From: Octopus sinensis
Taxonomy: Eukaryota
NCBI RefSeq assembly: GCF_006345805.1
Contig: NC_043003.1
Location: 68,696,001-68,760,000, forward strand
Length of the DNA stretch: 64,000 nucleotides
Direction: 5' to 3'
A model generated the notes under the pieces. That model ran no database searches, was not told the DNA's origin, and saw only the letters and a list, made by a program, of their open reading frames with translations. Position 1 is the stretch's first letter. The number at the start of each line of letters is the position of its first letter. Both the position numbers and the translations under genes were made by a program. This document shows positions 20,374 to 37,864 of this stretch, piece after piece.

Positions 20374-20408
20374 ATATCGACCGGTTTCGCTATCGCTATT
20401 CATGATAT
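20374..20408 (-). ncRNA. Minimal hammerhead with A3-U8 core variant
   Basis: AUAUC AUGAAUA GC-GAUA-GC GAA ACCGGU C GAUAU; lies sense and downstream of a PLE endonuclease fragment. Confidence 0.6.
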
Positions 20409-20723
20409 TATGTTTTACTTATTTGAATATATATTTTTTCTTAAGAAGAAATTTGGTCAATGTTGTGCGTGATGAGTGAATGACTCCACAAGTAGATAAA
20501 TGAAGGGATGTAATTGGTCGTCGCTATTATTGTTGTTGATGTGTGTAAGGGAGATAACTGTTCAGCTTTCGGTAATGGGTGGGGAGTAAATATGTGTACA
20601 GAACAGAGACAGGTTTTAAAAACCTTGTTTAGTAAGGGATTTATGTACAGTGATGTAATCGTGAATTGAAATATGTAAAAATATAAAAGTTGGTTATGCG
20701 TGCATATTAAGACGTGTTTTGTA

Positions 20724-20945
20724 TTATTCAATGAACAACGTTTCTTTATTTAAACGTTCTAGTTGAGAGATTGCGTATTGGCACTGGTAGAAAGGGAAGG
20801 CTGTGAAATTTGGTTTGATGTTACCTACACATTTTTCTATATGTTCACTGAGATGACTTTGTCTGTATTGCGGGAACCGGATTTGGTCCTTATGTAGAGT
20901 GGTTCTCTTTCTCAAGGTCATATACGTAAGTATATGCCCATACAT
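20724..20945 (-). pseudogene. C-terminal half of PLE GIY-YIG endonuclease (Neptune-like)
   Basis: MTLRKRTTLHKDQIR...SEHIEKC...FPFYQC aligns with the sequence following YIGQT at 38600-38800. Confidence 0.75.
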
Positions 20946-21137
20946 CTATACGGATATTTGCATATGTGGGCACAGGGCGTCATGAAGTGTGTGCAACAAA
21001 AAAGTACGAAGCACGTTTACATCAAACAGGAACTATTCTTTCGAATAATGAAAGACACGATCACAAAACAAAACAAACATAAAGAACGGCCCTTCATCAT
21101 ATATATATATATATATATATATGATGAAGGGCCATTC

Positions 21138-21270
21138 ATTAAGAATGAGAAACCAAGTTCGAAATTTTCCCAGACACCTGATGAAGACTGGAGAGTATAA
21201 CTGCCGAAACGTTGTGTTAACAGCAAACAAGAGGAGGACAAATATCCGTCAAACGTAAATAATGTAAATG
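21138..21270 (+). mobile_element. 5'-truncated HHR-SINE (family C); hammerhead at 21173-21218
   Basis: GACAC CTGATGA A GACTGG...CTGCC GAAACGTT GTGTT, tail GTAAATAATGTAAAT; homologous to 63715-63850. Confidence 0.8.
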
Positions 21271-21299
21271 CTGTAAGATCTTTTTTTATTCGGCGTTGT

Positions 21300-33162: not shown

Positions 33163-34058
33163 CAAGGCGACTAGCTGGCAGAAACGTTAGCACACCGGGC
33201 GAAATGGTTAGCGGCATTTCGTCCGTCTTTACGTTCTGAGTTCAAATTCCGCCGAAGTCGACTTTGCCTTTCGTACTTTCCGGGTCGATAAATTAAGTAC
33301 CAGTTGCGGGATCTTTTCGGTTTGAAAGGCATTTTTTAAAAATAATTTCTATGTAACAAAAAAATGTTAAACTTCGTATACTGGTAGAATGTGTTTATAA
33401 AACGCCTTTTTCTCTTGGCTTTCTTGAGAAAATTCTGTAGTAAGATATTTAGTCTTTAATTTCTTGCATTTTTGCAATTTCAATCAATCAATGACGTCTA
33501 TTGAGGTGAAAACAATATCTGCCGAAGTCTGTCAGCAGCAATTTTTTGCGGTGTCATATGAAAATATCCCTGCTATTTATGAGAAAAAAGATACCAGGTA
33601 GCCATAAACTGAGGGGTCACTCGTAAACAGAGCTGGATAACAAAACCGTTCCCTCTTTAGTGTCCACACATAATTATGACCCTAGTATCGATCTATTGCA
33701 TTTCAATCTGTTTTAGGGTTAGTTAGAGTTAGGGTTAAGGTTAGGGTTAGGGGTGGGGGAAGGGTATCTTTTTTCTTCAGAAATGTAAATAAACCCAATC
33801 TGTTTCTTAGAGACATTAAAGACCAAATATCTTACAAACTACAGAATTTTCTCAAGAAAGCCAAGAGAAAAGGATGTTTTATAAACACATTCTATCAGTA
33901 TACGAAGTTAAAATTTTTTTAGTTACATAGAAATTATTTTCAAAAACTGCCGTTCAAACCGAAAAGATCCCAGTTGCGTACTGGGGAGGGGACAATGTAA
34001 TTGACTGGCCCCATCTCCCACCAAAATTTCAGACCTTGTGCTTAGAGTAGAAAAGGAT
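33163..34058 (+). mobile_element. SINE family B interrupted by a MITE
   Basis: Head and core 33163-33308 resume at 33971. Confidence 0.85.
33309..33970. mobile_element. Non-autonomous DNA transposon with about 140-bp TIRs, TSD and internal TTAGGG tract
   Basis: GGATCTTTTCGGTTTGAA...TTCAAACCGAAAAGATCC flanked by CAGTTGCG duplication (33301-33308, 33971-33978). Confidence 0.9.
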
Positions 34059-35049
34059 CTTGATAGTCGAGTATAAATTTATTGTAAACGTATTATGCCG
34101 TTTTTAAGGAGCACTTTCGGCCACATCTACCAAATGTTATACCCAAACACAGTGACTAGTTCATTGAAACTCTATCTGTAATCTTAAGGAGAATTTATTC
34201 CAAACAAAAACAAAGAAAATAACTTTGTTAGTATATAACACTTCTAGACACTAATTGCTTCTTTTTGCTTTTTTTTTACTGTTTTTGTTTTCTTAAACAA
34301 CTAAATTAGGAGCAAGTCTCTTAGACATTACTGTGTTCGAATCCTAGAACTCGTAGGGCAGGTACCCGGTTTTCGTGACATACAAGTGAGCGAGAACATA
34401 ACACGCCATCACACTGAACAGGACATTACTGAAATGGAGCAATGTGAAATGAGACAATTTGGATTTAAATCTAAAGGAATCTAAATGAAATTCATAGAAA
34501 TCAATGTGGCATAGTACGAGAAACACCAAAATATAAAAATGTGTACATACAATCCAATAAACCAAGAAATTTATATCAGATTGATTATGACATATAAACA
34601 CATATTAGATTCAATCGCCAGCCGCAAACTAGAAATAAATATCATAATCGAAATCAGCGAACAATTGAATTATTACAGAGAAATATTAATGAGAGAAGTG
34701 AATCTTTTCTCCCAGAGATCTTATATTCCACCACCAAAATCCTTATGAAAATTACTCGCAAAAACAGAAATTATGTTTAATTATTTCCACAAATATTGAC
34801 TTTGGTAAAAGAAGGAAAGGTTTATTTGATGGAAGAATCCCCAACTAGTAAATATTTACCCTTCTCCGTTTATAGAATAATACTCATTGAGGAGTAGATT
34901 GGTTTAGGTCTATGTAAAAAAAATACTGAGAACGATAGCAATTAATGCACAACAATGTTCAAAGAACGCTGCAACCAGCATATACACACCTTTAGTAACT
35001 GTACCAGGAAAAAGGCATCTCAGTCTTAAATATGACCTTGTGAAACAAG

Positions 35050-37260
35050 CATTGCTTATTTAATTGCTGAGACCCAAGGAAGGAAAAGAGAAATTACAGG
35101 CTCTTAGAGACGAATGAGATTAATACCAGTAATGTCCAATTAGAACTTTTACAGTTTAATACCTAAAGAAAAGACATGTGCAGGGAGGACATTCCAGAGG
35201 AGCAACGTTCTAGGAATGAAAGTTTGGATATAGTGCAGTCAAAGGCTGGTTAGATGTACCATCTATAGCAAGGGGTGGAAAGACGAGTGGATCGAGGTGC
35301 TTATGTAGAGGAAGTACGAGAGCAACCAAATTCAATGGGCAGAAAACATTGGCTATTAGCAACCGAAAAAAGAGACAACACATATGAGCCAGAGGTTGGA
35401 ATATGAGAGCCAATCAATTCAGTGGACTTTCTCTGGATGCTATCAAGAATATCAATGAGCATAGCAGTAACACCGTCCTTAAAGTGGTAGAAATACTTCA
35501 TTGTGAATCTCACTGGAGCCTTGTAGGATGCCGTCAGCTATTTGGTATGAAATAATTTCTGATACTAAAAAAGAGGTCAAGTCCTTAGTCCTTAGTATGT
35601 GGGTCTTGCTATTTTAAATGACGTATTTACATCTGACGAATCCTCAGTGATAGTGAGTCGCAGAATCTGGAACGACTGTTAAGTTTCTGACTAAGTGCCG
35701 CTTATTTTGGGGGGCACTTTCCTTGATATGATAAGTACTTGTGTTTTGGGGGAGCCTTATTCAAAGAGACATAATTTACATGGTCGCAAAGAGTATTCTG
35801 TAAAGGTTTTCGTTGATAAAATGATACATCTTTATTGCTTACTAACGATGCATTGTTAAGTAAGTCAGATATGAATGAAAGGTGTATCTTCTGCATAAGA
35901 GTGAGCAATGTGAAAAAGAGGGAAAATAGTTCATTGATATTTTGTAGGAATAAATGGCTGAGGATAAAACCGAACATTAGAATTTATTGGCACAGAAAGA
36001 GTTCCTTCAGATATTTCTGTAATGAAGTGATCCAATATGAAGTTATCGAGACGCGAAATGAGGGTGGGAGGAACCTGTAGGCAGGAGGTTTTAAAAAACG
36101 ACTTGGATGCCAAACAACTTTGAAGGGATCGCAGTTGTTTGGAGAAATGCTTATATTCTCAAAAGCGGGAGCCTGATGATGGGTGACATACGAGTGTAAG
36201 TCGCCTGTGGACCAAACTTTGAGGAAAGGGTATTTTTGATCACTGAGGAACGGGAAAGATAAATCATGATGTAGATTATAAAAGCGAGAGCAATGGACCG
36301 ATAGTTGGCTTTCGTTAGAATAAGGGACAGTGGAGCATGATTCAAGTTATCAGAACATATACCTGTAGAGAATGAGAGATTAAAGAGGTAAATAGATATA
36401 GGAACAAGTTCAAGGGTGCATTCTTTGAATGTAATGGAATGGACGTTGTTTGGGACGAAGACCTAGATGACGTGTAGCAGTTGAAGATATTTGCGCTCTT
36501 GGCGTGAGAGTAAACAGGATGTTAAACTTTAGGGAATGGAATGAGAAGGAAGGGTTTCAGAATTTTGTAGGGAGAAGAATTTTGTAGTTATGGGATGCAA
36601 AGGAGACCATTTCCCAAGGAATATTGTTTACGAACCACCGTTCTTTAAAAGAAGAGAGAAAATGATAGATACTATTTTGCCACGAAAAGTTAAGGCTGGG
36701 CTACATTTTGGAAGGAGGTAGGAGAGCTTAAGGAACGAGTGTTGCACGAAGACAACCATTGCACAGTAAATAGTGGGCTTACAAGGTTTACACCGCTGGG
36801 AGAACATCCCTTAGTTTGGATGAGAGGCTGAGGTGAAGACGTTGTTCTTTGCCCAAACAGCTGCATTGCAGCGAAGATTAAGCCGATCAGAGAACTCGGA
36901 ACAGCATGCGTGTGTATGCCAGTGTGTGTGTGCGCATGTGGTATGTGTGCGTTGAAAGTGCAGGGATATGCCTAAAAGGAAAGTTTCAGTCACATGTCTA
37001 TCTATTTTTGAATTGTCACATTTGTAGGCAATGGTAAGTGGCATAAATTTCATGGAGCTTCGACCTGTCAGCTGACTTGAAATATCTGAGAATCCTAAAG
37101 GAGAGGAATGATATGTGATTGTAGTTGTGTATGGAGCATTTGTAACGAGGCCATCGTTGAACGGCCCGAAACGTTTAACAGGGGTTATTTCAGAGGTGCA
37201 AAAGAGATCAAAGGTGTTCGGGTCGTCTGCGTGACGGTCTGACATGTGAGTAGAGGATGA
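35050..37260 (-). pseudogene. Heavily degraded APE-RT LINE ORF2 (CR1/Jockey group)
   Basis: PNTFDLFCTS (APE end), NYRSIAL (RT), LDSIQRKSTELI and QPLAH (post-RT) occur in the expected order. Confidence 0.65.
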
Positions 37261-37828
37261 ACATGAATTTACAAAACACTGAGATTTCAGACTCGATAAC
37301 GGCAAAATCGGTACGCGATATATGATATAAAATGTTCGATATAAATATATGTATACAAGAGAAAAACTTTGAAGCAATCAATAGATACTAATAAGAAATT
37401 GCAACATGTATGCCTAAGCAAGATATGCAAAATATAAATCCGTTACACTTACAAGAAAGCTTTAAATAAAAACAACCCCATCGCAAAGTATTTCTCACCT
37501 GCATACTTCTAGATATTTAAATTAATAACAACTTCTTCTACAACGGTTTATATATATATATATATATAATATTTATATATATATATATATATATATATAT
37601 ATATATATATATATATCTATATATATATATATAATATATATATATATATATATATATATATGACTGTGTGTGTGTCTGTTTGTGTTTGTGTGTGTGTGTA
37701 TGTAGGGGAAAAGTAAAAAGAGAAAATGTACATTGGATATAAAAAAATAAAGGCTTTTTTTATAACAGGTAACGATATATATATATACAATTAGATGAGC
37801 TGAGTAGAATGAATTGTTAAAGATACAG

Positions 37829-37864
37829 AGTCATACCGGTATCGTCACAAGCTGATCACTGACT
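37829..37864 (-). ncRNA. Degenerate hammerhead with G3-C8 core swap
   Basis: AGUCA GUGAUCA G-CUUGUGA-C GAU ACCGGU A UGACU; A14U change and weak helix II. Confidence 0.5.

Follow-up and report, generated by a model that had tools for sequence, protein, structure and literature searches.

A 64,000-nucleotide (nt) stretch of the Octopus sinensis genome (RefSeq assembly GCF_006345805.1, contig NC_043003.1, positions 68,696,001 to 68,760,000 of the forward strand; hereafter the window, with coordinates counted from its first letter) carries two short minus-strand motifs beside remains of Penelope-like retroelements. Both have the core of a hammerhead ribozyme, with A-U (site 1) or G-C (site 2) instead of the canonical C-G at core positions 3 and 8. 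We put at roughly 65% the probability that each motif is typical of its family, at the 3' end of elements from one of two sister Penelope-like clades, and is a minimal hammerhead whose 3-8 pair has been swapped repeatedly and kept by selection. The evidence comes from the homologues of each motif, from genome-wide counts of 3-8 combinations, and from covariation, folding and a tree of the host elements.

Two hammerhead motifs with an exchanged core pair

Re-reading the sequence confirmed both motifs where a sequence-only reading of this DNA had placed them, each with a perfect 5-bp helix I and both with the palindrome ACCGGU; positions 3 and 8 had, as that reading stated, changed jointly while staying complementary. 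Numbering and the labels of helices I–III follow the papers cited below. The A3-U8 motif of site 1, of minimal type I (20374–20408, minus strand), reads ATATC ATGAATA GCGATAGC GAA ACCGGT C GATAT. Its core is AUGAAUA (N3 at 20403, N8 at 20398), helix I is ATATC/GATAT, the palindrome occupies 20385–20380, and the predicted cut follows C17 at 20379. The G3-C8 motif of site 2, likewise of minimal type I (37829–37864, minus strand), reads AGTCA GTGATCA GCTTGTGAC GAT ACCGGT A TGACT, with the core GUGAUCA (N3 at 37859, N8 at 37854), helix I AGTCA/TGACT, U14 at 37841, the palindrome at 37840–37835 and a cut predicted after A17 at 37834. The caution that helix II is short was well placed: it has 2 bp at site 1, and at site 2 it consists of the pair G10.1-C11.1 alone.

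The remaining hammerhead core (U4 G5 A6, A9, G12 A13, A15.1-U16.1, H17) is present at both sites and in the families picked by homology. A14 is present at site 1 and U14 at site 2, and A9 is followed directly by G10.1, the unpaired nucleotide typical of the published minimal hammerheads (min-HHRs) being absent here. The site 1 core also begins with AUG (20401–20403, minus strand), which opens merely an 18-codon frame in clade A and shows no sign of serving as a real start.

When both strands of the window were scanned with relaxed criteria for minimal hammerheads, three matches came up: sites 1 and 2, and an AT-rich match at 14013 in which positions 3 and 8 are not paired. Neither site has the literal CUGANGA box with C3 and G8. 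Rfam hammerhead models matched neither site at E ≤ 10, so standard searches miss both. Among the 150 of 258 Rfam matches listed for the whole window, which came from microsatellite-driven microRNA and similar models, there was no hammerhead. At the Rfam gathering threshold, a test of low power for motifs so short, 0 matches were obtained in six loci, one of which has a canonical core. The two motifs are thus recognised by their structure and not by the CUGANGA box or the Rfam models, and their cleavage is a prediction from sequence.

The exchanged pairs are family traits

The site 1 family was collected by a DNA search with site 1 and the 550 nt upstream (1,874 candidates, 40 scored, 30 fetched), and all 31 ribozyme segments, the window's own included, were A3-U8. 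For site 2, matches were taken from the open reading frame (ORF) part of the query, independently of the ribozyme, giving 30 loci and 25 segments, of which 23 were distinct. These comprised 17 G3-C8, 3 A3-U8, 2 G·G (one a truncated copy) and 1 U·C. The sequence-only reading had asked whether other copies carry ordinary C3-G8, which was found in 0/31 and 0/23 homologues and in 3 of 3,813 matches genome-wide. The fixation that it proposed to check was complete for A3-U8 in the site 1 family, and G3-C8 was the majority state in that of site 2. Both motifs are family traits and not post-insertion mutations.

Two of its cautions fell away. The motifs are not single copies, both having many copies in the genome. 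A14U is no single-copy change either but a subfamily trait, present in 17 of 30 fetched G3-C8 loci (L091–L120). A small number of clade A copies (L245, L247, L248) have the same substitution. Its amplification in clade G together with these clade A occurrences suggests that A14U has more than one origin. G5, A6, A9, G12, A13 and U16.1 were kept in the homology-picked sets of all lineages. Among close relatives of site 2, many have a C·A mismatch within helix I and others a perfect helix of 7–8 bp.

Contigs from four public runs, which carry four organism labels, were also inspected. Positions 3 and 8 of site 1 showed no variant at or above 5% (10, 3, 677 and 306 contigs covering). Site 2 was covered in three of the four runs (none in run X11); position 8 varied in 1–3 contigs per run, and position 3 did not figure among the rows listed, which lacked 8 of the total.

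Combinations at positions 3 and 8 across the genome

A search of the 2.72-Gb assembly that left positions 3, 7 and 8 free but fixed G10.1-C11.1 and ACCGGT gave 3,813 matches, compared with 4 for a reversed control. Eight further searches partitioned these matches exactly, minor classes being counted by eye from the listings; all genome-wide counts are of copies, not of independent events. The A8 class held 2,355 U3, 22 A3, 10 G3 and 9 C3; the U8 class 1,007 A3, 24 G3, 16 C3 and 15 U3; and the C8 class 134 G3, 23 A3, 5 U3 and no C3. With G8 there were 3 C3 and 190 others, the first 100 of which were 88 U3, 9 A3 and 3 G3. A search with a free 3-8 pair, proposed as a check by the sequence-only reading, thus recovered both exchanged pairs in quantity.

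Watson-Crick combinations made up 3,499 of the 3,813 matches (91.8%), compared with 49.9% expected if the two positions were independent. The U3·G8 wobble (~167) was the sole abundant class outside them; other mismatch classes had 0–24 members each, scattered over families. U3-A8 outnumbers every other variant in the genome, and canonical C3-G8 is almost absent from this radiation. The proposal that one lineage uses natural 3-8 variants missed by CUGANGA-based searches therefore stands as to the many copies and the few C3-G8, but the lineage is in fact two sister clades and the commonest variant, U3-A8, was already published. An amplified G3·U8 intermediate was sought and not found, G3·U8 (24) being about as frequent as A3·C8 (23), as decay would give.

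Motifs so short, in window copies that are broken and 10–25% diverged from their relatives, could be taken for chance matches or for C3-G8 ribozymes randomly mutated after insertion. The family data refute this: C3-G8 is missing from both sets of homologues, and the controls for the A3-U8 and G3-C8 patterns gave 1 and 0 matches. We therefore give this explanation practically no weight.

Where helix III has another sequence, canonical cores do occur but in smaller numbers: a comparable pattern gave 254 matches, against 111 for controls. They include a separate C3-G8 type-I family (L186, L189, L192, L198, L206, L207) whose helix III is genuine. No Penelope ORF lies within 1.5 kb of its members, and the family may be a retrozyme or an element resembling a short interspersed element (SINE). 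Helix III palindromes other than ACCGGT were tried and set aside: they gave 342 matches, with 74 in controls, and most of the 100 listed were ACCGGT copies in decay.

Covariation and folding of the motif

Covariation was assessed in 23 hand-picked subfamily representatives, with a shuffle control that ignores relatedness. Positions 3 and 8 were paired in all 23 (G-C 9, A-U 5, U-A 5, U·G 3, C-G 1), as was G10.1-C11.1, which is partly fixed by the search pattern. In helix I, 77% of cells were paired and two-sided changes occurred at 7/7 pairs; pairing overall reached 84%, compared with 27–46% for slid registers. Compensation in helix I is illustrated by ATATC/GATAT, GTATC/GATAC and ATGTC/GACAA, and further by AAGAAAT/ATTTCTT, AAAGTCA/TGACTTT and AAAGCA/TGCTTT. 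All amplified subfamilies seen keep positions 3 and 8 pairable, and their N17 is C, A or U, not G. A local hairpin behind the 3-8 covariation was rejected by eye because 2.1 and A9 are unpaired in clades A and G. Covariation between N7 and N14 was likewise rejected, all four combinations occurring.

Helix I takes other forms in some lineages. In the amplified subfamilies of L157, L074, L087 and relatives it is shifted and leaves an extra U before position 3, like the 2a insertions reported elsewhere. In most copies of L283–L312 a distal 8-bp stem, judged by eye, closes the motif.

The core is common to all four lineages although their flanks align near shuffle level and the endonucleases of the clades are ~50–55% identical. 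In 8 of 12 flank comparisons more than 5% of shuffles scored equally well, and one comparison alone beat all 200 shuffles.

The ACCGGU palindrome paired between copies in 6/6 cofolds. For two copies of site 1 the cofold minimum was a double-hammerhead architecture at -15.3 kcal/mol, and a U3-A8 example also had its palindromes paired and helices I and II formed at the minimum. The minimal hammerheads are likely to fold as dimers, and weak cutting is predicted for them.

History of the pair

A rooted protein tree was inferred from 31 copies and 21 outside homologues, the outgroups being generic mollusc proteins or similar; 8 of 60 rows were excluded for private mutations or scrambling. The radiation formed one clade (support 100/99), which also took in two outside proteins. 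One half of it (Y3-R8, 100/99) held U3-A8, U3·G8 and a few C3-G8, and the other (R3-Y8, 99/96) held clade A, with A3-U8, and clade G, with G3-C8 and a second A3-U8 group. Site 1 belongs to clade A and site 2 to its sister, clade G. Six state changes are required by the tree, one of them of purine-pyrimidine class. The oldest-looking lineage, sampled by homology without the core pattern (n = 35), was mostly U3·G8 (26), with 4 C3-G8 and 2 U3-A8.

The second A3-U8 group is seen in a clade G sub-lineage with a GTAA helix, where the first 100 of 175 matches comprised 77 A3-U8, 19 G3-C8, 2 A3·C8 and 2 G3·U8. Its A3-U8 and G3-C8 copies have almost identical flanks, and the 12 A3-U8 loci fetched have clade G flanks. 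A single clade for all A3-U8 copies was rejected (p-AU 4e-5), paraphyly being compatible with the test. As to direction within clade G, two trees nest A3-U8 within G3-C8 at moderate support and a third leaves the A3-U8 rows basal. CpG decay was rejected as the source of a change from G3-C8 to A3-U8 because neither changed base lies in a CpG.

The pair may have started as pyrimidine-purine, passing among C-G, U·G and U-A by single transitions. One double transversion would then have given rise to the purine-pyrimidine half, in which A-U and G-C would be connected by a double transition.

What selection may act on

Several observations weigh against minimal hammerheads with a selection-kept pair, and the genome pattern fixed the remaining core positions by design. 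Those that concern the pair itself bring in an explanation by founder effect, in which the ribozyme is dead weight and its 3-8 states descend from a few amplified master copies with complementary changes. Only about six events stand behind all copies, two or three of them double changes; base frequencies alone make half of the 3-8 combinations Watson-Crick; and the direction of the A-U/G-C switch differs among trees. However, all amplified states seen are pairable and each double change is complementary, helix I has compensatory changes of its own, and the core persists across clades with barely alignable flanks and diverged endonucleases. A founder effect is on this evidence very improbable, and selection on the fold and its 3-8 pair highly probable.

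The other adverse observations concern cleavage. Helix II is 1–3 bp long, and the cofold minimum of site 2 and of two other G3-C8 examples is not the double hammerhead. In the U3·G8 subfamilies and in some with U3-A8, helix I is displaced by one nucleotide, and its proximal part is poor in the old U·G/C-G lineage (L283–L312). A14U was amplified in clade G; A14G is a standard inactivating change in hammerheads (PMC4889925). Among 51 copies selected through the sequence that follows the cut site, one starts at that site, several are truncated at scattered places nearby and nearly all read through, so that no enrichment marks a genomic footprint of cleavage. In the Anolis carolinensis Poseidon element PAc, as described in PMC11167929, ribozyme mutants left insertion in vitro unimpaired and no RNA-seq ends fell at the cut site.

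The A14U amplification, the shifted or weak helix I, the read-through and the Anolis results would suit a fold, pair and palindrome selected as structure, for RNA dimerisation or as a protein binding site, with cleavage negligible or lost in several subfamilies, and the discussion in PMC4209133 leaves functions other than cleavage open. Against it, G5, A6, A9, G12, A13 and U16.1 are retained, and N17 in amplified subfamilies avoids G. Chemistry, over and above shape, would demand both, and the 3-8 pair is part of the active conformation. We consider selection for structure only unlikely, though far from negligible, and think that selection probably acts on cleavage.

Cleavage by these minimal hammerheads would proceed as follows. 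Two motifs, in a tandem transcript or on two RNAs, would form a 6-bp helix III by base-pairing between their ACCGGU palindromes. N3 would pair with N8 and so hold the ribose of nucleotide 8, whose 2'-hydroxyl would act as the general acid, the role ascribed to that of G8 (PMC2920678). The pair would then matter more than the identity of its bases, because it positions that ribose, and the base of nucleotide 8 would be free to change so long as the pair holds, because the acid is the 2'-hydroxyl. The cut after N17, probably made slowly and with assistance from the element's protein, would process a multimeric precursor RNA, and the RNA that is reverse-transcribed would mostly be uncut at the ribozyme site. 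Slow, protein-assisted cleavage of dimers is to be expected because the published Penelope ribozymes are slow dimers and the Anolis element needs its own protein.

The host retroelement and its remains in the window

Longer copies encode a reverse transcriptase (RT), a C-x4-C-x2-C linker (seen in the ORFs of L214, L216 and L228) and a GIY-YIG domain. In Pfam, RVT_1 exceeded its cut-off in L228 and GIY-YIG scored 24.4 bits in L213 (cut-off 22.6). A protein search gave 487 homologues at E ≤ 1e-20; among the 120 listed most had an RT and many a GIY-YIG domain, and of the named hits Argonauta was the sole cephalopod, the others being bivalve or labelled as a bivalve's symbiont. A CX2-5CxxC linker between RT and endonuclease marks Neptune or Nematis according to PMC8557442. 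The host is an endonuclease-bearing (EN+) Penelope-like element with a Neptune- or Nematis-type linker, an assignment made by the linker. In most copies that retain the endonuclease, the ribozyme lies ~200–370 nt downstream of the GIY-YIG domain, in sense.

Copies show inverted 5' segments, (TA)n flanks and two alternative 3' ends ~50 nt apart, followed by (TA)n; PMC8557442 describes inverted and tandem arrangements, optional tails and microsatellite targets for Penelope-like elements. Head-to-tail triplets of the ribozyme-bearing 3' segment occur at L238 (575 nt apart) and L252 (544 nt apart), and resemble arrays of non-long-terminal-repeat retrozymes derived from Penelope ends.

Young copies (L229, minus strand, ORFs 4069–2723 and 2894–1635; L226, L230, L231) have an upstream ORF of ~440 amino acids without a Pfam match; between it and the RT-endonuclease ORF there is an overlap in the -1 frame. 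In four copies the overlap contains a U UUU UUA heptamer, a candidate site of programmed -1 frameshifting; the 71 nt downstream of it folded no better than shuffles (z -0.75). A homologous upstream ORF (48% identity) is present in the clade G copy L220.

Around site 1 the window holds a 5'-truncated clade A element (20265–20922, minus strand) comprising the C-terminal GIY-YIG part, the 3' untranslated region (UTR), the ribozyme and a tail, and ending at a (TA)n microsatellite. Its 20323–20922 part is 90% identical to copy L214 over 609 nt. The tail of ~50 nt (20265–20314, minus strand; boundaries judged by eye) is optional, occurring in some family copies only. The broken GIY-YIG fragment occupies about 20694–20922 on the minus strand, in the same sense as the ribozyme, and not 20724–20945 as first given.

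Around site 2, the 3' end of a clade G element (37818–38093, minus strand) comprises the ORF end, 3' UTR and ribozyme and is 73–81% identical to L218, L221, L222 and L224, the L224 match extending to 37711. Beside it lies the inverted upstream segment of the same element (38101–38857, plus strand). This segment carries the RT thumb, the linker and the GIY-YIG endonuclease, interrupted by stop codons and frameshifts. It is 76–78% identical to four clade G copies over ~830 nt, in the orientation opposite to 37818–38093. The sequence-only reading had seen homologous GIY-YIG fragments adjoining both motifs. The homology is real (49% identity over 61 amino acids, E 5e-19), but the site 2 piece runs opposite to its ribozyme; elsewhere in that family the ribozyme follows in sense, ~245 nt downstream.

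Elsewhere in the window, 24027–26875 is a tandem array with a 91-bp unit (27 overlapping 300-nt family members listed), and 59859–61405 holds nested inverted repeats whose arms are up to 99% complementary, a repeat also found in the clade G copy L222.

Relation to known hammerheads and Penelope-like elements

Metazoan Penelope ribozymes are described in PMC4209133 (Cervera and De la Pena 2014) as lacking a stable helix III, dimeric and slow to cut in vitro. Like the min-HHRs of that paper, the octopus motifs are of type I, have a palindrome instead of helix III and the pair G10.1-C11.1, and lie at the element's 3' repeat, with thousands of single truncated copies and close inverted pairs. Unlike them, they have a helix II of 1–3 bp, a 6-nt palindrome, instances of A14U and almost no C3-G8. 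They also lack the extra nucleotide after A9, which is missing as well in 2 of the 56 representatives of supplementary Fig. S3 of that paper. Those 56 comprise 53 C3-G8, 2 U3-A8, 1 U3·G8 and 0 A3-U8 or G3-C8. The same source accepts U3-A8 as hammerhead and gives a U3-A8 class of ~1,300 hits in Schistosoma mansoni Penelope elements.

Natural U3-A8 hammerheads were reported in 2011 (PMC3088659). The likeness is natural covariation at 3-8; the exchange named in the section covered is the U3-A8 double transition alone, with no flip between purine and pyrimidine. In PAc, activity is lost with either C3G or G8C and partly rescued by C3G/G8C; its ribozyme depends on the element's protein to cut, and insertion draws mainly on uncut RNA (PMC11167929). 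PAc resembles the octopus elements in carrying a Penelope ribozyme and in its 3'-end tail. Its G3-C8 is engineered, the natural PAc core being C3-G8 in that account, whereas G3-C8 here is natural and amplified; the clade described here also has a zinc-finger linker, which Poseidon lacks. Neptune and Nematis, as presented in PMC8557442, share the linker type, and the octopus elements differ in the 440-amino-acid upstream ORF that overlaps the RT ORF in young copies. No natural G3-C8 or eukaryotic A3-U8 family was found in the literature searched, whose coverage of small Penelope variants is incomplete, and novelty is provisional.

It was engineered double mutants that established the C3-G8 pair, and the natural swap known is mainly U3-A8. 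A single genome with amplified A3-U8, G3-C8, U3-A8 and U3·G8 on a resolvable tree adds evolutionary support for the pair, and the series offers ready constructs for asking if selection on Penelope ribozymes favours cutting or the fold alone. A further suggestion is that reports of missing ribozymes based on CUGANGA, such as the core search for Naiad elements reported in PMC8557442, deserve re-examination with a free but paired 3-8. More tentatively, and with the odds somewhat against it, all four Watson-Crick states, U·G and A14U may coexist in one radiation with every form cleaving in vivo, probably with the help of protein. If true, G3-C8 would have its first natural ribozyme family and A3-U8 its first in eukaryotes, the radiation would supply a dated natural series of compensatory evolution within an active site, and CUGANGA-based censuses would seem to overlook most hammerheads in some genomes.

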